Shown here: positions 50,972 to 60,151 of the stretch, piece after piece
Numbering within the stretch: the first letter of the stretch is position 1
Layout of the letters: each line of letters begins with the position of its first letter
DNA from: an uncultured Spirochaetota bacterium
Lineage (GTDB): Bacteria; Spirochaetota; Spirochaetia; SZUA-6; Fen-1364
DNA length: 64,000 nucleotides
Assembly: GCA_963820525.1 (NCBI GenBank)
Contig: CAWGAA010000001.1
Span: 1,696,001 to 1,760,000, forward strand
Reading direction: 5' to 3'
Notes under the pieces: generated by a model
The model's input: only the letters and a program-made list of their open reading frames with translations
Told to the model about the DNA's origin: nothing
Database searches by the model: none
Program-made: the position numbers and the translations under genes

Positions 50972-51979
50972 ATGCAGGAGCGCATCGAGCGAAAGCGCCT
51001 CGTCATGCTTCGCATCCTCCAGGAGGCGGACAATCCCGTGGGCAGCGACCTGATCACAAAGGAGCTGAAGCAGCACGGCTACGACATGAGCGAACGCACG
51101 GTTCGCTTTCACCTCCTGGCCATGGACAAGGCGGGGTACACCCGCTACATCGGAAAGCGGGGGCGGCGCATCACGGAAAAGGGCAAGCTCGAGCTCTCCA
51201 ATGCCATGGTCCACGAGAGGGTGGGTTTCCTGGCCGCGAAGATCGACCAGCTCACCTACCTCATGAAATTCGACATCGCGAAGCTCCAGGGCAGCGTGGT
51301 TGTCAACACAAGCCTCATCGAGAAGAAGGAGCTGGAGCGCACCTACCCGTTCGTACAGAAGGTATTCGAGGCGGGCTACGCCATGGGCAAGCTCCTTACC
51401 CTCTACGAGCCGGGATGCAGGGCGGGGGAGATCGTGATCCCGCCCGGGTTCGTGGGTTTGGGAACGATCTGCTCGATCACCGTCAACGGAGTGCTCCTCT
51501 CCCTGGGAATCCCAACCCACTCCCGCTTCGGCGGGCTTCTGGAGATGCAGGAGAGGAAACCACTGCGCTGGACGGCCATCATCAACTACGACGGCACCAG
51601 CCTGGACCCGCTGGAGATCTTCATCAGAAGCGGCATGACCGATTACGTTGGAGCAACCGAAGTGGGAAGCGGCCAGATCGGAGCCAGCTTCCGTGAGGTC
51701 CCTGCAGGCAGCCGCGACAGCGTGGTGGAAATAGCGGGAAAGCTGGAAAAGATCGGTTTGGGTGGATTCATGGAGATCGGCTGGCCTGGCCAGCCGCTCC
51801 TGGGGATCCCCGTGGACGAGAACAGAATCGGGGCCATCGTCATCGGGGGGCTCAATCCCGTCGCCATCCTGGAGGAAATGGGGGTCACGGTATATTCGCG
51901 GGCTCTCTCGGGGCTCGTGGATTTCCATAAGCTCTTCCATTACAAGGAGTTGGGAGAGCGGATCAGAAAAATGAAGTAA
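50972..51979 (+). CDS. NrpR-like regulator (wHTH + single NrpR/DUF128 domain)
   Basis: ERTVRFHL..MD..G.T...G..GR.IT..G; TICSITVNG; Y.GTSLDPLEIF; ASFRE.P; GGLNP.A. Confidence 0.88.
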   Translation: MQERIERKRLVMLRILQEADNPVGSDLITKELKQHGYDMSERTVRFHLLAMDKAGYTRYIGKRGRRITEKGKLELSNAMVHERVGFLAAKIDQLTYLMKFDIAKLQGSVVVNTSLIEKKELERTYPFVQKVFEAGYAMGKLLTLYEPGCRAGEIVIPPGFVGLGTICSITVNGVLLSLGIPTHSRFGGLLEMQERKPLRWTAIINYDGTSLDPLEIFIRSGMTDYVGATEVGSGQIGASFREVPAGSRDSVVEIAGKLEKIGLGGFMEIGWPGQPLLGIPVDENRIGAIVIGGLNPVAILEEMGVTVYSRALSGLVDFHKLFHYKELGERIRKMK

Positions 51980-52013
51980 TCGGGCTTTTATTCACGTTTT
52001 TTATAAATTTTCA

Positions 52014-52102
52014 TTGACAGCAGACGCCTTCTATGGTAATTTGTCGAAAAATATTCATGGCAATGGTTTGCCATAAAGAGTTGTTACCGGCTTGTCTTTG
52101 CC
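52014..52102 (+). promoter_or_regulatory. Sigma70 promoter followed by two GGC(A/T)-N6-TGCC boxes
   Basis: TTGACA(52014)-N17-TAATTT(52037); ATGGCAA-TGGT-TTGCCAT at 52057-52074; GGCT-N6-TGCC at 52089-52102. Confidence 0.7.
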
Positions 52103-52159
52103 ATAAGGGAGAGATTTTCGTCAAGTCGGGGCGTCCCGTCCGCCCGCCAGGAGGGATTC

Positions 52160-52657
52160 ATGGAAACGACCACAAAAGATTCCCTTGAGCAAATCCTCAC
52201 CCGTCACGGGCGGAAACGCACCCAGCTCATCGAAGTCCTTCACGACATCCAGAAAAGCTTCAGCTACCTTTCCGAGGATGCGCTCAAGACCGTATCCGAC
52301 AGCCTTGAAGTGCCTCTCATCGAAGTCTTCAGAGTGGCCAACTTCTACAAGGCCTTCAAGCTGAACCCCCAGGGCCGGCACCTTCTCACCCTCTGCATGG
52401 GCACTGCCTGCCACGTGAGGGGAGCGGACAAGCTCGCCGACGAGGTGAGCGGCCAGTTCGGCATCAAACCGGGGGAGACCACTCCCGACGGAGAGCTCAC
52501 CCTGGAGACCGTCAACTGCCTGGGGGCCTGCGCCCTGTCTCCCATCGCGATTCTCGACGGCAAATACTACGACAGGATGACCTACGCGAAGCTTCGCTCG
52601 CTGATCGAGAGGGTCACCGGAAACTCCCGCGAAAAGAAAAGCGTCACGTCAGGATGA
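52160..52657 (+). CDS. NuoE/HydC-like [2Fe-2S] subunit
   Basis: VANFY..F, CMGTACH, CLGAC. Confidence 0.93.
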   Translation: METTTKDSLEQILTRHGRKRTQLIEVLHDIQKSFSYLSEDALKTVSDSLEVPLIEVFRVANFYKAFKLNPQGRHLLTLCMGTACHVRGADKLADEVSGQFGIKPGETTPDGELTLETVNCLGACALSPIAILDGKYYDRMTYAKLRSLIERVTGNSREKKSVTSG

Positions 52658-54516
52658 AACCCATGGCAATAAAACCCACGACCGAGACCCTGAAGAGACT
52701 GGCCGATACCCGCCTGAAGGAGGACAGCGCCTACAGCCGGATCGCCATCGTGTGCGGCGGGCCCGGCTGCAGCGCCTCCGGCTGCCAGACCATCGTCGCA
52801 TGCCTCCAGCAGGAACTTGCCCGCAACGGGATCGGCAAGAAGATCAAGGTGAGGACCACGGGCTGCCACGGCTTCTGCGAGCAGGGACCCCTCATGGTGA
52901 TAGAACCCGAGAACCTCTTCTATTGCAGGCTCAAGCCGGAAGATATCCCCGAGATCGTCGCCGAGACCCTCGGCAAGGGCACGGTGATCGAGCGGCTCCT
53001 CTACACGGACCCCGCCACGGGCCGCAAGGTACAGAAGGAATCCGACGTTCCCTTCTACAAGGCCCAGGACAGGGCCTTGCTCGAGCAGAACAAGAATATC
53101 GATCCCTGCGAGATCGGGGACTATATCGCCCACGGCGGATACTCCGCGCTTTCCAAGGTCTTGACCACCCTGAAGCCCGAGGAGGTGATCGCCGAGATCA
53201 CGGCTTCGGGATTGCGGGGACGGGGAGGCGCTGGATTTCCCACGGGAAGGAAGTGGGAAACGTGCAGAAAGGCGGCGGGCTCGCCCAAGTACGTGATCTG
53301 CAACGCGGATGAGGGCGATCCGGGCGCCTTCATGGATCGCTGCATCCTCGAAGGCAATCCGCACGCCGTCATCGAGGGAATGCTCATCGGCGCATTCGCC
53401 ATCGGGGCGGAGCACGGCTACATTTACGTGAGGAACGAATACCCCGTCGCAGTGGATCACTCGAAGATCGCCATCACGCAGGCCGAAGAGATGGGCCTCC
53501 TGGGGAAAAACATCCTGGGGACCGGCTTTTCATTCGATATCACGGTGGCGCGCGGCGGTGGGGCATTCGTCTGCGGAGAGTCCACGGCCCTCATGGCCTC
53601 CCTGGAGGGGAAAGTGGGGGAGCCCCGGCCAAAGGACATTCACAGCACGGAAAAGGGCTTCATGGATCTGCCGTCCAATCTCAACAACGTGGAGACCTGG
53701 GCCAATGTTCCCTCGATCATCAATCGCGGTTCCGCCTGGTTCGCTTCGAAAGGCACCGCCCAGAGCACGGGGACCAAGATCTTTGCCCTCACGGGCAAGG
53801 TGAAGAACACGGGGCTCGTCGAAGTTGCCATGGGCACCACGCTGCGCCGTATCGTCACCGACATCGGCGGCGGCGCTCCCGACGGCAAGCGGGTGAAAGC
53901 GGTACAGATCGGGGGGCCATCCGGCGGCTGCCTGCCCGAGAGCCTGTTCGACCTTCCCGTCGACTTCGAGGCTCTGACGGCGCATGGGGCAATGGTCGGC
54001 TCCGGCGGCCTGGTGGTCATGGACGAAGGCACCTGCATGGTGAACGTGGCCCGCTACTTCCTGAAGTTCCTCCTGGAGGAGTCATGTGGCAAGTGCGTGC
54101 CGTGCCGCCTTGGAGTGAAGCGCCTCCACGAAACGGTGAGCGAGATTGCGGAGGGCCGGGGCACGGAGGGGATGCTGGAGCTCCTCGCCGACACGGCGGA
54201 GACGGTATCGGTGGCTTCCCTCTGCGCGCTGGGAAAGACTGCTCCCAACCCCCTCCTGACCACCTTGAAGTACTTCCGTGAGGAGTACGAGGCCCATATC
54301 AGCGACAAAAAGTGCCCCGCGGGGGTCTGCAGGGCCCTGATCCATTATTCAATCGACGATGCCGCCTGCAATGGATGCGGCCTGTGCTTCACGGCATGTC
54401 CGCACGGCGCCATCCAGCGGATCGACAAGAAGGTCTATCGCCTCGACGAGGCAAAATGCAGCAAGTGCGGCATCTGCCGGGACGCATGCAAGCACAGCGC
54501 CATCAGGGTCGCGTGA
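52654..54516 (+). CDS. NuoF/HydB-like FMN/NADH subunit with N- and C-terminal ferredoxin domains
   Basis: CGGPGC...GCHGFC; GLRGRGGAGF; NADEGDPG; CGESTAL; NNVET; CGKCVPC; H....KCPAGVC; two CxxCxxCxxxC. Confidence 0.93.
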   Translation: MKPMAIKPTTETLKRLADTRLKEDSAYSRIAIVCGGPGCSASGCQTIVACLQQELARNGIGKKIKVRTTGCHGFCEQGPLMVIEPENLFYCRLKPEDIPEIVAETLGKGTVIERLLYTDPATGRKVQKESDVPFYKAQDRALLEQNKNIDPCEIGDYIAHGGYSALSKVLTTLKPEEVIAEITASGLRGRGGAGFPTGRKWETCRKAAGSPKYVICNADEGDPGAFMDRCILEGNPHAVIEGMLIGAFAIGAEHGYIYVRNEYPVAVDHSKIAITQAEEMGLLGKNILGTGFSFDITVARGGGAFVCGESTALMASLEGKVGEPRPKDIHSTEKGFMDLPSNLNNVETWANVPSIINRGSAWFASKGTAQSTGTKIFALTGKVKNTGLVEVAMGTTLRRIVTDIGGGAPDGKRVKAVQIGGPSGGCLPESLFDLPVDFEALTAHGAMVGSGGLVVMDEGTCMVNVARYFLKFLLEESCGKCVPCRLGVKRLHETVSEIAEGRGTEGMLELLADTAETVSVASLCALGKTAPNPLLTTLKYFREEYEAHISDKKCPAGVCRALIHYSIDDAACNGCGLCFTACPHGAIQRIDKKVYRLDEAKCSKCGICRDACKHSAIRVA

Positions 54517-54531
54517 CGAGGAGCGGAAGCG

Positions 54532-55230
54532 ATGAATGAAACGGTAACCTTGAGGATCGATGGCGCGCCCGTCAAGGCGGCCCAAGGAACCTCCGTTCTG
54601 GAAGCGGCCCTCGATTACGGGATCTGCATCCCCCACCTCTGTAACATCAAAGGGGTGAGCCCCGTGGGAGTGTGCAGGCTGTGCATCGTAGAGGTGGAAA
54701 AGAAAGGAAAGTCGAGAATCACCGCCTCCTGCACCCTGGAGGTGGAAGAGGGCATGGAGATCAAGGCCCACACCGAGAAGGTCAACCGCATCAGGAAGGG
54801 TGTCGCGGAGCTCCTGGTGGCTGAAGCGCCCAACTCGCGGGCCGTGCAGGACATCGCCGTGCTCTGCGGCGTCACCTCGGTGCGCTACCCGTTTCGAAAC
54901 GAGCAGTGCGTGCTGTGCGGCAGGTGCGTGAGGGTCTGCACGGAGGTATGGCGGGGCAACGCCTTGGGCCAGGTTGGCCGCGGGGAGCTGCAGCACATCG
55001 CCCTCCCCTTCGACAAGAGGCCGGATTCCTGCAAGCGGTGCAATGCCTGCATCACCGTCTGCCCGATGATGATCACCCCGTGCGACGGCCCGATGAAGAC
55101 GGGGCAGGAATACCTGTGCGGGAAGTGCGCTTCCCAATTGAGCATGAGCGCCCACGCTCCCGGCAGTTGCGTCCGCTGCAGGCTGGGAAAGGGATTCGAT
55201 TGCATCCGGCAGGTGCCGGTCATCTATTAA
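54532..55230 (+). CDS. Short NuoG/HydA-N-like Fe-S subunit without catalytic domain
   Basis: IPHLC...CRLC...SC [2Fe-2S]; CVLCGRCVRVC and CKRCNACITVCP; six-Cys tail; no H-cluster or molybdopterin domain. Confidence 0.88.
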   Translation: MNETVTLRIDGAPVKAAQGTSVLEAALDYGICIPHLCNIKGVSPVGVCRLCIVEVEKKGKSRITASCTLEVEEGMEIKAHTEKVNRIRKGVAELLVAEAPNSRAVQDIAVLCGVTSVRYPFRNEQCVLCGRCVRVCTEVWRGNALGQVGRGELQHIALPFDKRPDSCKRCNACITVCPMMITPCDGPMKTGQEYLCGKCASQLSMSAHAPGSCVRCRLGKGFDCIRQVPVIY

Positions 55231-55276
55231 GGGGACATCCAGCGAGCCCACAGGGCGAGCTTCAAGGGGGGAATGA

Positions 55277-56866
55277 ATGAACCTGCAGAGACCCAATTCC
55301 AATGACGTGACCCAGACGGTCAATCGTTCCGAGAGCGTCGTGGCAAGCTCCGGCTTGTGCACGCGCTGCATCGACGGCTGCCGTGGAAACTGCGAAGTCT
55401 TCCGCTCCACCTTCAGGAGCCGCGAGGTCATCTACCCGGGGCCATTCGGCGAAATCACCGCCGGGGGAGACAAGAACTACCCCATCGACTATTCCCACCT
55501 CAACATCATGGGCTACGCCATGGGCGCCAAGGGGCTTCCGCAGGGCGTCGAGCCGGGCCCCGACACGGCAATCTTTCCCGCGGTCAATACCGAGACCGAG
55601 TACGGGTGGAGCTCCAAGGTGAAGATGAGGGCGCCCGTGTTCACCGGCGCGCTCGGGTCCACCGAGATCGCGCGGAGGAACTGGGAGCATTTCGCAATCG
55701 GCGCGGCCATCTCGGGAATCACCCTGGTGTGCGGCGAGAACGTGTGCGGAATCGATCCCCAGCTCGAGCTGGACTCCAAGGGAAAGATCGCCAAGTCCCC
55801 CGATATGGACAGGCGCATCGAGACGTACAAGCGCTTCCACGACGGCTACGGAGAGCTCCTCGTACAGATGAACGTCGAGGATACCCGCCTCGGCGTGGCG
55901 GAGTACGTGAGGAAGAGGCACGACCTGAAGACCATCGAGCTGAAGTGGGGCCAGGGCGCCAAGTGCATCGGCGGAGAGATCAAGGTGAAGAGCCTGGAGC
56001 GCGCCCTGGAGCTGAAGAAGCGCGGCTACATCATCACCCCGGACCCCACCTTGGAGGCGGTTCAGGCCGCGTACAAGGACGGGGCCATCCGCGAGTTCGA
56101 GCGCCACTCCCGCCTGGGTTTCGTGACCGAAGACGGATTTTTCAAGGAGATCGAGAGGCTGCGCAAGCTCGGCTTCGAGCGCATCACCCTGAAGACCGGC
56201 GCCTACTCAATGAGGGAGCTCGCCATGGCCATCAAGTATTCCTCCATGGCGCATATCGACCTTCTGACCATCGACGGGGCGGCAGGGGGAACAGGCATGA
56301 GCCCCTGGCGGATGATGGAGGAGTGGGGAATCCCCACCTTCTACCTGGAGTCGCTCACCTATGAGTTCGCAGAAAAGCTCGTAAAGAGGGGAATGCGCCT
56401 GCCGGACCTTGCCATCGCGGGGGGCTTCTCCACCGAGGACCACCTGTTCAAGGCGCTTGCCATGGGCGCCCCGCACATCAAGGCCGTCTGCATGGGCCGC
56501 GCCATGATGATCCCCGGAATGGTGGGCAAGAACATCGACCTCTGGATTAAGGGCAACGACCTTCCCACAACCGTGTCGCGCTTCGGCAAGACCCCCAACG
56601 AGATCTTCGTGTGCTTCGACGAGCTGGCCGATAAGTACGGAAAACAGATGAAGGACATCCCGCTTGGTGCCGTGGGCATCTACAGCTTCTCCCAGAAGCT
56701 CAAGATCGGGCTCCAGCAGCTCATGGCGGGCACCAGGAACTTCAGGCTCTCGACCATCTCCCGCAAGGACCTGATGTGCCTCACCGAGGACGCTTCGAAA
56801 GTTTCGGGCATCCCCTACCTCATGCAGGCGTACCGGGAAGAGGCGGAGGCGGTGCTTCAGAGCTGA
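55277..56866 (+). CDS. Stand-alone FMN-binding glutamate synthase family protein (GltB2-like)
   Basis: N-terminal CxxCxxxCxxxC; IELKWGQGAK..GGE; LKTG; IDG..GGTG; AGG......FKALA.GA; MGR. Confidence 0.88.
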   Translation: MNLQRPNSNDVTQTVNRSESVVASSGLCTRCIDGCRGNCEVFRSTFRSREVIYPGPFGEITAGGDKNYPIDYSHLNIMGYAMGAKGLPQGVEPGPDTAIFPAVNTETEYGWSSKVKMRAPVFTGALGSTEIARRNWEHFAIGAAISGITLVCGENVCGIDPQLELDSKGKIAKSPDMDRRIETYKRFHDGYGELLVQMNVEDTRLGVAEYVRKRHDLKTIELKWGQGAKCIGGEIKVKSLERALELKKRGYIITPDPTLEAVQAAYKDGAIREFERHSRLGFVTEDGFFKEIERLRKLGFERITLKTGAYSMRELAMAIKYSSMAHIDLLTIDGAAGGTGMSPWRMMEEWGIPTFYLESLTYEFAEKLVKRGMRLPDLAIAGGFSTEDHLFKALAMGAPHIKAVCMGRAMMIPGMVGKNIDLWIKGNDLPTTVSRFGKTPNEIFVCFDELADKYGKQMKDIPLGAVGIYSFSQKLKIGLQQLMAGTRNFRLSTISRKDLMCLTEDASKVSGIPYLMQAYREEAEAVLQS

Positions 56867-56890
56867 TCGCTCGCGGTCACGCATGACGGC

Positions 56891-56926
56891 AAGGCGGCCG
56901 GTCACCCCCGGCCGCCTTTTTATTTT
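56891..56926 (+). terminator. Rho-independent terminator
   Basis: AAGGCGGCCGG-TCACCC-CCGGCCGCCTT followed by a T-rich tail. Confidence 0.85.
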
Positions 56927-57013
56927 GGCGGGACCTTTCAGATGCTTTCTGTGTTGTCCGAGGAATCGGCCCGCCGTTAAAGGCCTGACCCCCTCGGCAG
57001 ATGCGGCTTGATC

Positions 57014-59917
57014 CTACCGCCCGGCGTCCTTCGGCGCGAGATCGTTTCCGATGCCGAGATAAACCGGCTTGAATCCCCCTCCGTAATCCAGCTGCGTCGT
57101 CCACACCTGGACCGTGCCGGCGGCCTGCCAGACCCGGCCCTTCTGCGACTTGGCGGTCAAGAGGTAGCCAACGGTCGCTCCTTCGGGCAGGTTCATGGAT
57201 TGGCCGAAGCCCAGCGCGTTGCCCCTCGGCGCCCCAGGCTTTGTCCAGACCATATCGCTGCCGAGAGGCTTCCCCGCGGATGCGTCAATGACGCTCACCG
57301 CTATTCCATATTCTCCCGCGGAATTCTTCTCGAAGTCCTCGCGGTCGGCAGCGCGTTCCTTTCCCGCCGCCCGCGATATATAGCCTGCCACCTTCACGAG
57401 CGTGCCGACCTTGGGCCAGATCGCCCGGGGGCTGCTGCCGAAAAGCAGGAAGGGAACATTCAGCCCCACAATGCCGCCTGAAGGCATCGCCTCGGCATAA
57501 TAGAGGTAATTGCCGCCGCTGGTTGGGACGGCAACTTCAACCTCGACGAGGCGGTTTCTGTCCAGTGTTACCCCCGCCGAGCTGTATTCGATGCTCACGG
57601 CCTGATTTCGGCCCAGGGAACGCACCTGTACGGGAACGGATCCCTGCGCCACGATTTCATCGCTGCGGTAATAGCGCACCGTCACGCGAGCCTGGTCGCC
57701 GATCCGCTCCTTGTTCAATGCAAGGGCATCCGCTTCACGCTTCTCGAGGCGCAGGTTTCTGGCCATCACTGAGATGCGGTCGTTTCCCGTCGGCTGCGCC
57801 GGCTGGGGCGTGACGGGCATCGGCTGAGGTCTGAGGGGCTGTGGCTGCTCTTCTCGGGAAACACGGAGGGTATATCTGGCCGTGCTTCCATTCTCCGCGG
57901 TTACGTCAATGGCGACAACCCGGGTGGCACCCGGATCCACGGCAACGGTTCGACCTGTCTTCTCCAGGGGCGAGCCGTCGACCGTGATGGCTGCCTTCGG
58001 GCTCTGAGCTGATGCCATAAGGAGCACGGAAGGCACGCCGGCGCCGATCTTGGCATCGTAGATGATGATGCCGGGGGAGAAAACGGGCTGGAGCGCAACG
58101 CCGGCGAGCTGGAGCGTATTCAGCATGGTGTTGCCGTCCTTGCCGACCTGAGGCACGACGGGGGCGGGATTAGCGGGCTCTACCGGCTGGGGAGTCACTG
58201 CGGGCTGAACCGGAGACACATCTCGGCTCACCGTCACCTGGTAAAGCCGCTGCGAGCCATCCTCCGCAGTCACCACGAGGCTGACGATGGCGCTCTTGCC
58301 GGGGTCAACAGCCACTGTGACGGTCTTGCTGGAAGCTGGGGCCGCGCCCTGCTCTCCCGCGAGGGAGATGACAGCCCGCGGGCTTGCCGTCATCGTCGTG
58401 AGCTGGACGTTCGTAACGCCCGAGGACAGCGCCAGGCTGTACGATACGACACGGGGAGAAAACGGCGGGAACAGCGCTCCGGCTGAAACGGCCAGGGAGG
58501 CAAGGTCGGCATTGCGGTCAGGGGGCGCCCTCCTGATGACGAGGGAGTAGCGGAAGACATTCCCGTCCTGCGCGGTCACGGTGACCGACATGGGCAGCAG
58601 GTTTCCCTTCTCGAAATCCAGCAGCACTCCCGCCGGGTCCGCCGGGCTTCCCTGATATGAGAAGCCCACGGCGGCCGCGCCAGCCGCGGAGGCCGGCATC
58701 TCCAGGGCTACGCGCGCATACGCGCTTCGCGGCTGGGCATGCACCGTGAGCTGCTTGGTCGCGAAAGGCACGCTTGCGTCGAAGGAGGCGATATTGGGGC
58801 CGAATGTTGGAGAGAGCACGCCCCCGTCCACCGAAAGTACGGCCAGCTGGTAATCGTGATCGGGCTCCGCGCGCACGATTTCAACCGCGTATTGCTGCGC
58901 GCTTCCATCCTGCGCGGTAACCGTCACGATAAAGGGGAAACGCGCGCCGCTGGCGAAATCGAGGACGGCGCCGTTTTTATCCGAGACATTCCCGCGGAAC
59001 GCTCCGACGGCCCCACCGCCCTCCTGGGAGGCCGTCTGCCCGGGCACGCCGATGGCAAGAACGGCATACGGGCTCTGCGGACGGGCGCGGACCACCAGCT
59101 GCCGTGTTTCGAAAGGCACAGAGACCACGTAGGTGAAGCGGGAAGGCGTGAACAGGGGCGCAAGAGATGCGCCCTGTATGTCAAGTGCGTCCAGGGCGGC
59201 GTTGGAATCCGGCGCGGCCCGGGAAAGGAGAAAAGTATATTTCTGGCGCGTGACTCCATCCTCGGCCAGCGTCTCGATCACGATCGTTTCCTTCTGCCCC
59301 GTGGCGAAGTCCACGCTCGCGCTTGCCGCGGCGCCCTGATACTCGACGCCGGCAATGGAAATGCTTTTCACGGTGCGGCTCTGAGCCCGGGCTTCGATGT
59401 GCAGAGTTCGAGTGGCGAAGGGGACCTGGATGGCATAGCGAGTCACCGCCGGGCTGAAAGCGGGCTGGATCACCGCCCCGGAAGGCAGGGAGATCTGCGC
59501 AAGCCCGGCGGAGGCCTCGGCTTCCCGGACGACCACCCGGTAGCGCCATGGCTCCTTCTGGCCCGAGACCTCGATCGAGTACATCACGGGAGCCGAGAAA
59601 TCGTTGGCAGTGACGCCGTTCTGCTGGAGCACGCGCGTTCCGCTGGAAACAACGGAAATGACAGCCTCCGTGCTCAGGGAGAGCGTGGCGATCAACGTCG
59701 ACCTGTCGGTGCCGGGCGGAACGACGAGCTCGACGTCCCTCGGGTCCGCCAGCTCGTTTATCGTCCCCTGCACGTTCTGCGTCAGCCCGGGATTCGACGC
59801 CGAAAGCAGGAGAAACGAATCCACGGGGCCCTTGCCGCGCCCCGCGAATGTGACGCAGCCGCCGAGACCCGCGAGCATGAGCAAGGCAAACACGGCACGG
59901 CAGGCGAGCTTTCGCAT
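57014..59917 (-). CDS. Lipoprotein with about five cadherin-like beta-sandwich repeats
   Basis: Lipobox LGGC; repeated L..L...L.P.F.P....Y...VP and VTAEDG...Y motifs; Pro/Gln linkers; RBS GGAGG. Confidence 0.88.
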   Translation of the reverse strand: MRKLACRAVFALLMLAGLGGCVTFAGRGKGPVDSFLLLSASNPGLTQNVQGTINELADPRDVELVVPPGTDRSTLIATLSLSTEAVISVVSSGTRVLQQNGVTANDFSAPVMYSIEVSGQKEPWRYRVVVREAEASAGLAQISLPSGAVIQPAFSPAVTRYAIQVPFATRTLHIEARAQSRTVKSISIAGVEYQGAAASASVDFATGQKETIVIETLAEDGVTRQKYTFLLSRAAPDSNAALDALDIQGASLAPLFTPSRFTYVVSVPFETRQLVVRARPQSPYAVLAIGVPGQTASQEGGGAVGAFRGNVSDKNGAVLDFASGARFPFIVTVTAQDGSAQQYAVEIVRAEPDHDYQLAVLSVDGGVLSPTFGPNIASFDASVPFATKQLTVHAQPRSAYARVALEMPASAAGAAAVGFSYQGSPADPAGVLLDFEKGNLLPMSVTVTAQDGNVFRYSLVIRRAPPDRNADLASLAVSAGALFPPFSPRVVSYSLALSSGVTNVQLTTMTASPRAVISLAGEQGAAPASSKTVTVAVDPGKSAIVSLVVTAEDGSQRLYQVTVSRDVSPVQPAVTPQPVEPANPAPVVPQVGKDGNTMLNTLQLAGVALQPVFSPGIIIYDAKIGAGVPSVLLMASAQSPKAAITVDGSPLEKTGRTVAVDPGATRVVAIDVTAENGSTARYTLRVSREEQPQPLRPQPMPVTPQPAQPTGNDRISVMARNLRLEKREADALALNKERIGDQARVTVRYYRSDEIVAQGSVPVQVRSLGRNQAVSIEYSSAGVTLDRNRLVEVEVAVPTSGGNYLYYAEAMPSGGIVGLNVPFLLFGSSPRAIWPKVGTLVKVAGYISRAAGKERAADREDFEKNSAGEYGIAVSVIDASAGKPLGSDMVWTKPGAPRGNALGFGQSMNLPEGATVGYLLTAKSQKGRVWQAAGTVQVWTTQLDYGGGFKPVYLGIGNDLAPKDAGR

Positions 59918-60151
59918 GAAGACCTCCACTCTCAGATCTCGAATATAGTCCTTAGACGCCGGCAAAACCGGCATGTCGGAGCATACCGAAGAGGCACGGA
60001 TTGTATTTCGATATCATCCGGGCGGTATACTAACCCAAGGGGTTCACCATGCAATATACGATCATGCCCTCTGTGAAGGCCATCAAGAAGGCTCAGGGCG
60101 GCAACGTCGACATCATCGTCGGACCGTCCGCGGGGGAAGCCGCCCGCCGGC

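Follow-up and report, generated by a model that had tools for sequence, protein, structure and literature searches.

Which enzyme is encoded where genes for a NuoE-, NuoF- and NuoG-like trio, of the kind that serves electron-bifurcating hydrogenases, run directly into a gene for a flavin mononucleotide (FMN) protein related to glutamate synthase? The question is raised by a locus in a 64,000-nt stretch of DNA (the window) from an uncultured Spirochaetota bacterium (assembly GCA_963820525.1, contig CAWGAA010000001.1), in which an nrpR-like regulator gene precedes bfuC, bfuB, bfuA and a gene whose product we call GltB2L. We tentatively favor the possibility, which we hold at somewhat less than even confidence, that BfuABC-GltB2L is a horizontally acquired, NrpR-controlled and ammonia-dependent enzyme that forms glutamate with electrons from NADH and probably also ferredoxin. 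What the sequences show directly are the genes present, their cofactor motifs and homologies, the nitrogen-gene setting in several phyla, the enrichment of an operator-like motif and the foreign place of the cassette on the tree; that the proteins form a complex, on which substrate and in which direction they act, and whether ferredoxin or bifurcation is involved is what we infer.

A predicted Type-2 Bfu module and its FMN-barrel neighbor

BfuB contains every domain by which Schut et al. 2022 (PMC9304861) define its family, namely the NuoF FMN-binding, SLBB, NuoF [4Fe-4S] and 4Fe-4S ferredoxin-type domains, along with the B2 site and clusters at both termini. The corresponding Pfam matches are Complex1_51K (PF01512, 152.9 bits), SLBB (PF10531, 28.2 bits), NADH_4Fe-4S (PF10589, 103.9 bits) and PF00037 (44.9 bits). 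BfuB also has the FMN/NADH site. A partial 2Fe-2S_thioredx match (PF01257) at residues 33-104 encloses C34, C39, C71 and C75, the [4Fe-4S] site consists of C478, C481, C484 and C524, and the C-terminal 2x[4Fe-4S] segment shows CxxCxxCxxxC motifs at 572-582 and 602-612. The H-x5-C-x4-C motif (H548, C554, C559) forms part of the B2/Zn site, which also takes C461. In a gapless alignment with the Acetomicrobium mobile NiFe-BfuB chain (7t2r_B), C461/H548/C554/C559 fall on C438/H525/C531/C536 of that chain. Its fifth ligand, C476, is replaced by Ala499 in the window; the three Cys and one His that are left suit the Zn form known from HydABC, NfnABC and WorABCSL, as given in the available text of PMC12318220. 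In the available portion of Schut et al. 2022 (PMC9304861), the His of the B2 site and the Cys residues that accompany it are described as kept in bifurcating BfuB and absent from non-bifurcating homologs.

Comparison with solved structures leads to the same enzymes. The best relative of BfuB is 7t2r_B of NiFe-HydABCSL (767 bits, residues 27-617), and the other top chains, 8a6t_B, 7q4v_B, 9mqx_B (WorB), 7p5h_B and 9n5u_B (NfnB), also align over the full length, the range being 648-767 bits. Non-bifurcating NuoF or Fdh-beta chains score at most 391 bits and align to the core only. The NCBIfam models for NuoE/HoxE, NuoF and HoxU/NuoG all remain under their curated cut-offs, and on these scores we rejected a complex I or Hox identity for the trio.

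In Pfam, BfuC has the NuoE-like domain and BfuA the 2Fe-2S and 4Fe-4S ferredoxin domains that characterize the BfuABC family. BfuA carries one [2Fe-2S] motif, two CxxCxxCxxxC motifs and no catalytic domain (its Pfam matches are Fer2_4 and Fer4), and no His-ligated cluster motif (H-x3-C-x2-C) was found in its 232 aa. Its best solved relative is 9mqx_A, the WorA subunit of WorABCSL (E 2.6e-29, residues 2-184). The tail of BfuA bears a Cys4 motif, C196xxC199...C213xxC216, whose four cysteines are invariant in 7/7 aligned relatives; five of these come from trios lying directly upstream of GltB2L or split from it by nrpR alone, and in the other two the trio lies in the GltB2L locus at a distance of a few kb. 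The phmmer alignment between BfuA and WorA stops at residue 184, leaving the C-terminal tails unaligned, and the AlphaFold model of BfuA is poor over residues 121-232, which cover the Cys4 tail (predicted local distance difference test (pLDDT) <50).

The closest known system is WorABCSL of A. mobile (PDB 9MQX), a Type-2 BfuABC enzyme built on the same BfuC/BfuB/BfuA trio. WorB matches the window BfuB with 727.7 bits over residues 20-617, and WorA and BfuA are both ~240 aa long, with [2Fe-2S] and two [4Fe-4S] motifs and no catalytic domain. WorABCSL is described in the available text of PMC12318220 as having no A3 cluster and a C-terminal Zn finger on WorA; BfuA likewise lacks a His-ligated cluster motif. 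The WorA Zn finger docks catalytic subunits, and the Cys4 tail of BfuA may be its equivalent. The two systems differ in their third-substrate subunits: in place of WorS (a polyferredoxin) and WorL (a tungstopterin enzyme), the window encodes a single FMN/Fe-S protein, GltB2L, which might dock there. The bifurcating hydrogenases NiFe-HydABCSL (7T2R) and FeFe-HydABC (8A6T, 7Q4V, 7P5H) are related to BfuB over its full length (767-654 bits) and share the BfuC type and the B2-site His/Cys at the 7t2r_B positions; unlike them, the window has neither an H-cluster nor a NiFe subunit, its BfuA is truncated, and the C476 ligand is lost.

The initial annotation had read the NuoF-like subunit as having the long HydB architecture (N-terminal [2Fe-2S], H-x5-C-x4-C site, C-terminal 2x[4Fe-4S]), the third subunit as having no catalytic domain and the three genes together as an H-cluster-less HydABC/Bfu-like module. 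Pfam, the solved relatives and the 7t2r_B alignment agree with this on each point, and judged by its sequence the trio is a predicted complete Type-2 BfuABC module that lacks a catalytic subunit of its own. From gene order, GltB2L could be the additional subunit that handles a third substrate.

GltB2L is homologous to the FMN domain of glutamate synthase (GltS), as had also been proposed. Against 11 canonical FMN domains, hhalign gives a probability of 98.2% (E 4.8e-14, 25% identity, 286 columns), and Pfam matches PF01645 at 60.1 bits (cut-off 20.4) over residues 290-412, corresponding to profile positions 193-309 of 369. The AlphaFold model (pLDDT 85.4, with residues 1-68 low) is an FMN (beta/alpha)8 barrel, and its top Foldseek match is the ferredoxin-dependent GltS 1ofd_A (E 7.7e-10, TM 0.46). 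At 20/50 aligned positions that are invariant in canonical domains the residue is kept, including E154 (the Glu of GEGG), Q226-K229 (QGAK) and the DG-x-GGTG-x-SP block. NCBIfam models gave no match to GltB2L, and neither did solved structures when searched by sequence. A complex prediction for GltB2L with the BfuA-like subunit returned a score of 0.00, which we take as no verdict and use neither way.

The relationship to GltS is not one of identity. GltB2L shares with the GltS FMN domain and the archaeal-type GltB2 (PF01645; 1OFD, 6S6S) the barrel, the GE/QGAK/DG-x-GGTG-x-SP motifs and the setting in nitrogen clusters. It differs in the [3Fe-4S] Cys triad, which is missing: I424 and L429 stand where canonical domains have C281 and C286, and the [3Fe-4S] region is free of any C...C....C motif. 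It has in addition a C-terminal helical domain and an N-terminal Cys4 segment, C28xxC31xxxC35xxxC39, in which, among 30 sequences, C28, C31 and C39 never vary and C35 reaches ≥90% conservation. The glutaminase, central and GXGXG partners of GltS are likewise missing from the unit. By profile comparison, GltB2L is a distinct sister family of the GltS FMN domain and not a canonical GltB2, and the label "stand-alone GltB2" given in the initial annotation has to be dropped.

The locus itself is compact (Table 1). All five open reading frames (ORFs) are present as first called, the four genes downstream of nrpR are co-directional, and the gaps between bfuC, bfuB, bfuA and the GltB2L gene are -4, 15 and 46 bp. 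Neither the ORFs nor Pfam reveal a GltD, GATase_2 or GXGXG gene in the unit, again in line with the first description. The leader before bfuC is 180 nt long, with a GGAGG ribosome-binding site 5′ of the first ATG. A single promoter and a single terminator had been claimed. The terminator is there and is a strong one, with its hairpin at 56891-56918; the promoter is there in part, as a site recognized by eye (-35-like TTGACA at 52014-52019, -10-like TAATTT at 52037-52042), since a consensus scan found none on the + strand and the -10 element fits just 3/6 positions. The leader contains no RNA known to Rfam, whose sole match was a sub-threshold Pyrobac-1 inside nrpR. The GC content of the unit (0.60-0.63) is the same as in the remaining window. 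Directly past the operon terminator, a 986-aa ORF on the - strand (57014-59974) contains several internally similar segments of ~100 aa.

Table 1. Features of the nrpR-bfuCBA-GltB2L locus, in positions of the window.
Feature	Position	Strand	Basis or detail
nrpR-like regulator gene, 335 aa	50972..51979	+	NRD1_2 PF01995 263 bits; winged helix PF08461 70.1 bits
Promoter-like site TTGACA, 17-nt spacer, TGn, TAATTT	52014..52042	+	Read by eye
Perfect palindrome ATGGCAA-TGGT-TTGCCAT, candidate bacterial NrpR operator	52057..52074		Sequence; strand-less
Further palindrome half-site TTTGCCAT	52097-52104		
BfuC, NuoE-like [2Fe-2S] subunit, 165 aa	52160..52657	+	PF01257 162.7 bits; Cys 79, 84, 120, 124
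BfuB, HydB-type (NuoF-like) subunit, 620 aa	52654..54516	+	Pfam, motifs, solved relatives
BfuA, WorA-like short (NuoG-like) subunit, 232 aa	54532..55230	+	PF13510 73.1 bits and Fer4 matches
GltB2L, FMN (beta/alpha)8-barrel protein, 529 aa	55277..56866	+	Pfam, profile comparison, AlphaFold model
Intrinsic terminator, 11-bp stem with 9 G-C pairs, 6-nt loop, T run	56891..56928	+	

The GltB2L family, its neighbors and its linkage to the Bfu module

Relatives of GltB2L are abundant. All of the 7,999 scored candidates match at E ≤0.001, the best 120 being 78-100% identical, and clustering at 50% leaves 185 representatives at E ≤1e-30, many of which are fragments. From the more than 596 relatives in a genome collection, 80 loci were kept (999,804 bases; 70-80% identical), and the GltB2L locus counts given here refer to these; single loci are cited by L numbers. 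They span Omnitrophota, Planctomycetota, Chloroflexota, Nitrospirota, Thermodesulfobacteriota, Actinomycetota, Bacillota and one Methanosarcinales metagenome-assembled genome (MAG).

Across these phyla the family sits in nitrogen-assimilation neighborhoods, which supports the nitrogen-assimilation reading of the initial annotation. NrpR is encoded in 32/80 loci, and further neighbors include GAF-ANTAR regulators (14 loci), PII (13), glutamate dehydrogenase (GDH; 8), GltD-type proteins (7), class-II glutaminase (7), Fer4+PF01645 GltB2 (7), AmtB (6), full-length GltB (5) and GlnA (4), as well as CarAB. GltB2L and a canonical GltB2 thus stand together in 7 loci, and their coexistence in nitrogen clusters argues that GltB2L is a paralog of GltB2, not a piece of a split glutamate synthase (GOGAT).

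Several recurrent arrangements lie outside this list. In Dehalococcoidia, a HisF-like gene (PF00977, 256 aa) is found directly 5′ of GltB2L, often in the order nrpR-hisF-GltB2L (16 members in 16 loci, among them L026, L027, L035, L044, L053, L054, L056, L064, L067 and L076); it could be either the housekeeping hisF or a paralog devoted to ammonia channeling. Nine Dehalococcoidia loci (L034, L036, L041, L042, L043, L048, L055, L060 and L061) have in that place a gene for a PPDK_N protein of ~884 aa (phosphoenolpyruvate-utilizing, ATP-binding), often with genes for a ferredoxin, a class-I glutaminase and a pyridine-nucleotide disulfide reductase 3′; a GGCA-N6-TGCC site stands ahead of the PPDK_N gene in L041. 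In L006, L013 and L019 (Omnitrophota, Planctomycetota), NfnAB-like genes, encoding a PyrK-like Fe-S and a GltD-like subunit, lie with GDH 5′ of a GAF-ANTAR regulator and GltB2L, placing another redox-balancing module amid nitrogen-assimilation genes. In Nitrospirota, L051, L074 and L078 carry tandem GltB2L genes (~71% and 55% identical to the window's) followed by nrpR and PII, and on the GltB2L tree the second tandem copies group on a long branch of their own. L051 and L074 have a gene for a KaiC-HTH-cupin regulator 5′, as do L057, L073 and L080, Nitrospirota loci with a single GltB2L copy.

A natural fusion bears on how GltB2L might receive electrons. In P0254 (800 aa), a full GltB2L-like domain is preceded by a 2x[4Fe-4S] segment and a flavo-Fe-S domain of the FrhB-like, F420 type; it represents a 50% cluster (members P0272 and P0273), with three full-length members on separate contigs. 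It matches the window GltB2L at E 1e-46, as against 3e-13 for a canonical GltB2. The GltB2L Cys motif falls at the domain junction, directly after the electron-donor module, an arrangement that fits an exchangeable donor module feeding the N-terminal cluster. A search for fused relatives of greater length (927-2645 aa) found none at E ≤1e-30. The idea of an exchangeable flavo-Fe-S donor, there too FrhB-like, also underlies FGltS, which has been put forward as an F420-dependent glutamate synthase in methanogens. FGltS differs in using glutamine and, by our reading, the canonical three-part archaeal GltB, where the window would pair a BfuABC donor with GltB2L; the available text of PMC3448663 and PMC3087415 presents it as a putative glutamine-using enzyme, unproven according to PMC3087415.

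The Bfu trio occurs in 9/80 GltB2L loci. It lies directly 5′ of GltB2L in five (L004, L023, L037, L047 and L065) and is separated from it by nrpR in L021, these six coming from Omnitrophota, Thermodesulfobacteriota and Actinomycetota; in three Dehalococcoidia loci (L027, L053 and L046) it is nearby but not adjacent. On a GltB2L tree of 95 sequences, from which no rows were dropped, the copies linked to Bfu are spread over at least three clades and need at least four changes of state. In L037, L047 and L065, all Actinomycetota MAGs, the order nrpR-Bfu-GltB2L is otherwise conserved, but the BfuB match is broken into two or three segments whose frames differ, possibly reflecting frameshifts or assembly errors.

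The reverse test started from BfuA relatives 55-69% identical to the window's in 28 metagenome loci, 24 of which are informative downstream. GltB2L lies directly 3′ in 7 of the 24. Three further loci have it within ~1.5 kb, one after an intervening LysR gene and two as a convergent GltB2L-like gene, and in 1 nrpR is followed by the contig end. The Bfu-GltB2L link recurs across phyla, yet it is obligatory for neither partner. For the synteny survey that the initial annotation had called for, the outcome is a recurring but minority arrangement, and close relatives of the trio often stand alone.

In the host genome, a canonical gltB (GATase_2, FMN domain, GXGXG) and gltD lie ~1 Mb away (C1:2763045-2767327). 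The genome's single GATase_2 and single GXGXG matches are both in this locus, and no spare glutaminase or GXGXG gene was found in the genome outside it. Of the earlier statements on gltB1, gltB3 and gltD, their absence from the unit stands, and the only GATase_2 and GXGXG partners encoded elsewhere are those of the canonical locus. In that region (C1:2762915-2769000), the gltB open frame has 1186 aa (glutaminase, central and FMN domains) and GXGXG is in a separate 463-aa frame before gltD, which could be a natural split or an assembly frameshift (L001, L084, L088 and L089). The genome also has a second, stand-alone GltB2L copy (62% identical), one NrpR homolog (a single tblastn match) and, besides the window's, three NuoEF-type sets. 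At C3:775811-782000 (L085) lies another NuoE/NuoF pair of HydBC type, 51% identical to the window BfuB, its NuoF match being split into two overlapping pieces; a frame of 1224 aa with a GltD-type Fer4_20 domain comes next, and the whole resembles an NfnABC/Stn-type Bfu.

Within a phylum sample of 301 genomes, GltB2L occurs in 52, with identities up to 73%, and a NuoG-like match in 41, with identities up to 45% and the tail uncovered, and in none of the 17 other genomes that have both are the two genes adjacent. The window GltB2L branches inside an Omnitrophota/Planctomycetota clade (Shimodaira-Hasegawa-like approximate likelihood ratio test 99), apart from the copies of its own phylum. From this foreign position, the cassette was probably acquired horizontally.

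NrpR and a candidate operator

Both domains of NrpR, the winged helix and NRD1_2, are found in the regulator (Table 1), so that the unit does adjoin an NrpR-like gene, as first noted, and its leader carries an operator-like palindrome. The targets of archaeal NrpR are de-repressed under nitrogen limitation. The NrpR proteins of Methanococcus maripaludis and Methanosarcina mazei have the same two domains, and there too the gene adjoins nitrogen-assimilation genes; the window differs in its bacterial host and in an operator half-site, predicted from the DNA alone, that is one base off (GGCA vs GGAA). In the available portion of an M. maripaludis preprint on random barcode transposon sequencing (RB-TnSeq), archaeal relatives control nif, glnA and amtB-type genes, and the operator is GGAA-N6-TTCC.

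This archaeal consensus does not occur in the leader; in the genome it has 174 occurrences. The palindrome, written as GGCA-N6-TGCC, has the spacing of the archaeal operator. It begins 15 nt past the -10-like hexamer and, counted from the promoter-like site, covers about +8 to +25; its core, TGGCAA-N4-TTGCCA, is unique in the 5.05-Mb genome. In the 80 loci, GGCAA-N4-TTGCC has 11 sites, 7 of which lie within 350 nt 5′ of gene starts in the GltB2L gene run. That upstream zone comprises 6.7% of the bases; our own binomial estimate for 7 of 11 sites falling there is ~1e-6. Most loci with these upstream sites carry nrpR. In the window alone the motif does not exceed chance (2 matches at one mismatch, 2.48 expected). 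We regard the palindrome as a candidate operator of a bacterial NrpR.

Six other GGCAA-N4-TTGCC sites exist in the genome, four inside called ORFs and two intergenic. The two intergenic sites adjoin a response regulator gene and a phospholipase-C-like gene, neither a nitrogen gene, so NrpR may serve only this cassette in this genome. A sigma-54 reading of TGGCAA...TTGC was rejected, the GG-to-GC spacing being, by eye, one base short of the consensus.

The proposed reaction and competing explanations

The enzyme that we tentatively favor would work as follows. When nitrogen is scarce and 2-oxoglutarate high, NrpR would leave the palindrome just 3′ of the promoter and the operon would be transcribed. 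BfuB would oxidize NADH and, by analogy with other Bfu enzymes, would probably also take electrons from reduced ferredoxin (confurcation). Via the clusters of BfuA, the electrons would reach the N-terminal four-Cys cluster in GltB2L and, from there, its FMN. Free ammonia and 2-oxoglutarate would give 2-iminoglutarate, which the FMN would reduce to L-glutamate with no use of ATP. Because the genome holds no spare glutaminase, free ammonia is favored as the nitrogen donor. It had been suggested as one option, and is the likelier one if the product is glutamate, given that there is no spare GXGXG gene either. The earlier statement that the module replaces GltD comes down to an analogy, as canonical GltBD occurs at another place in the genome.

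Several observations weigh against this reading, and they are also what its competitors build on. The first competitor holds that BfuCBA and GltB2L are separate and merely co-regulated, GltB2L being ferredoxin-dependent, as would have to hold in the many genomes that lack the trio, and the trio balancing the ferredoxin pool or serving another partner. We think this rather unlikely. The trio is missing from 71/80 GltB2L loci, showing the family to be independent of the Bfu module, and 13/24 informative BfuA-relative loci, with relatives at 55-65% identity, have no GltB2L in the sequenced downstream DNA; in the eight of these 13 that were scanned, the downstream ORFs are unrelated (e.g. CutA1, ThiF, amidase, ABC transport) or have no Pfam match. 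The nearby but non-adjacent trios and the changes of state on the GltB2L tree point the same way. Electron transfer from NADH to ferredoxin is uphill, however, so that BfuABC with no third substrate would have no net exergonic reaction. The closest BfuA relatives (65-69% identity), moreover, have an adjacent GltB2L in 6/7 informative loci, the gaps of 15 and 46 bp in the window are short, and the Cys4 tail of BfuA is invariant in all 7 relatives from GltB2L-associated trios.

A second competitor accepts that the Bfu module supplies the electrons and makes GltB2L a nitrogen-regulated FMN/Fe-S reductase of another 2-oxo or imino acid, or of another nitrogen metabolite. The PF01645 match is weak and covers a third of the profile, and a Foldseek-independent fold search with the model is generic for FMN barrels: type-2 isopentenyl diphosphate isomerase, 2-hydroxy-acid oxidases/dehydrogenases and inosine-5′-monophosphate dehydrogenase reach Z 25.9-21.4, and GltS (6s6s_A), whose 348-residue alignment is the longest, follows at Z 21.3. 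Other FMN barrels score as well as GltS or better, so the modeled fold does not fix the substrate. At 30/50 canonical-invariant positions the residue is lost, including the Arg of "..tR", which is E245 in GltB2L, and the SGRFG and YSIED motifs are gone. A third glutamate-forming enzyme would also look redundant: the host genome already has GltB, GltD and GDH, GDH is a neighbor in 8 loci, and 46/52 GltB2L genomes also have a GXGXG domain (189/301 overall), so that GltB2L supplements GOGAT and does not replace it. Against a different substrate stand the retained GE, QGAK and GGTG motifs of GltS, the ferredoxin-dependent GltS as top Foldseek match, and neighbors that are core ammonium, glutamate and glutamine genes and their regulators, with no other single pathway among them. 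On balance we consider this explanation improbable.

Finally, the catabolic direction that the initial annotation had entertained, in which glutamate is oxidized and electrons pass to NAD+ and/or ferredoxin, is very improbable: Bfu enzymes are described as reversible in the available text of PMC9304861, but the operon lies beside NrpR, a repressor with relatives in archaea that control the genes of nitrogen limitation, the neighbors elsewhere are assimilation genes, and glutamate would, on textbook potentials, be too weak a reductant for NAD+ plus ferredoxin.

The potential of the product couple bears on whether a glutamate-forming BfuABC-GltB2L enzyme would need ferredoxin. For 2-oxoglutarate + NH4+/glutamate, E0′ is approximately -0.14 V. 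At this standard potential NADH alone suffices and bifurcation is unneeded, a further point against the full proposal. By our own estimate from textbook values, the couple would be near -0.35 V at 10 µM NH4+, 0.5 mM 2-oxoglutarate and 50 mM glutamate. Such a value lies between the potentials of NADH and ferredoxin, so that pooling both electron sources would pay. That BfuABC-GltB2L is an undescribed bifurcating member of the Bfu family, pooling electrons from NADH and ferredoxin with 2-oxoglutarate + free ammonia as its third substrate, nevertheless seems to us doubtful rather than probable.

We found no description of an enzyme or operon of this type in the literature. Neither the main text of Schut et al. 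2022 nor one of its supplementary texts contains the word "glutamate"; its Supplementary Table 1, which our coverage of the source did not include, might list the arrangement. The available portions of a GapMind 2026 preprint and of the M. maripaludis RB-TnSeq preprint hold nothing on the GltB2L family, and the nitrogen-related NrpR literature that we found concerns methanogens throughout. According to the available text of Schut et al. 2022 (PMC9304861), 18/57 clades of the Bfu family are still uncharacterized. What appears to be new here is the candidate catalytic partner that a Type-2 Bfu module would have in GltB2L.

GltB2L is a very large family, 70-80% identical over at least 8 phyla, with no assigned function or solved structure, and its link to a Bfu module suggests how anaerobes might fund ammonium assimilation with low-potential electrons in place of ATP. 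The palindrome, conserved among loci, provides a testable operator for bacterial NrpR, a regulator so far studied in methanogens; if the electron-pooling form of our reading is true, that operator would be defined as GGCAA-N4-TTGCC. The Bfu family would then gain a biosynthetic, nitrogen-regulated member, and the whole GltB2L family would receive a function, with electrons coming from ferredoxin, from F420H2 (in the FrhB fusions) or from Bfu modules. For the organism, glutamate could be formed at ammonium levels where an NAD(P)H-dependent GDH would stall, and energy-starved anaerobes would have a high-affinity, ATP-free route to glutamate beside that of glutamine synthetase and GOGAT.

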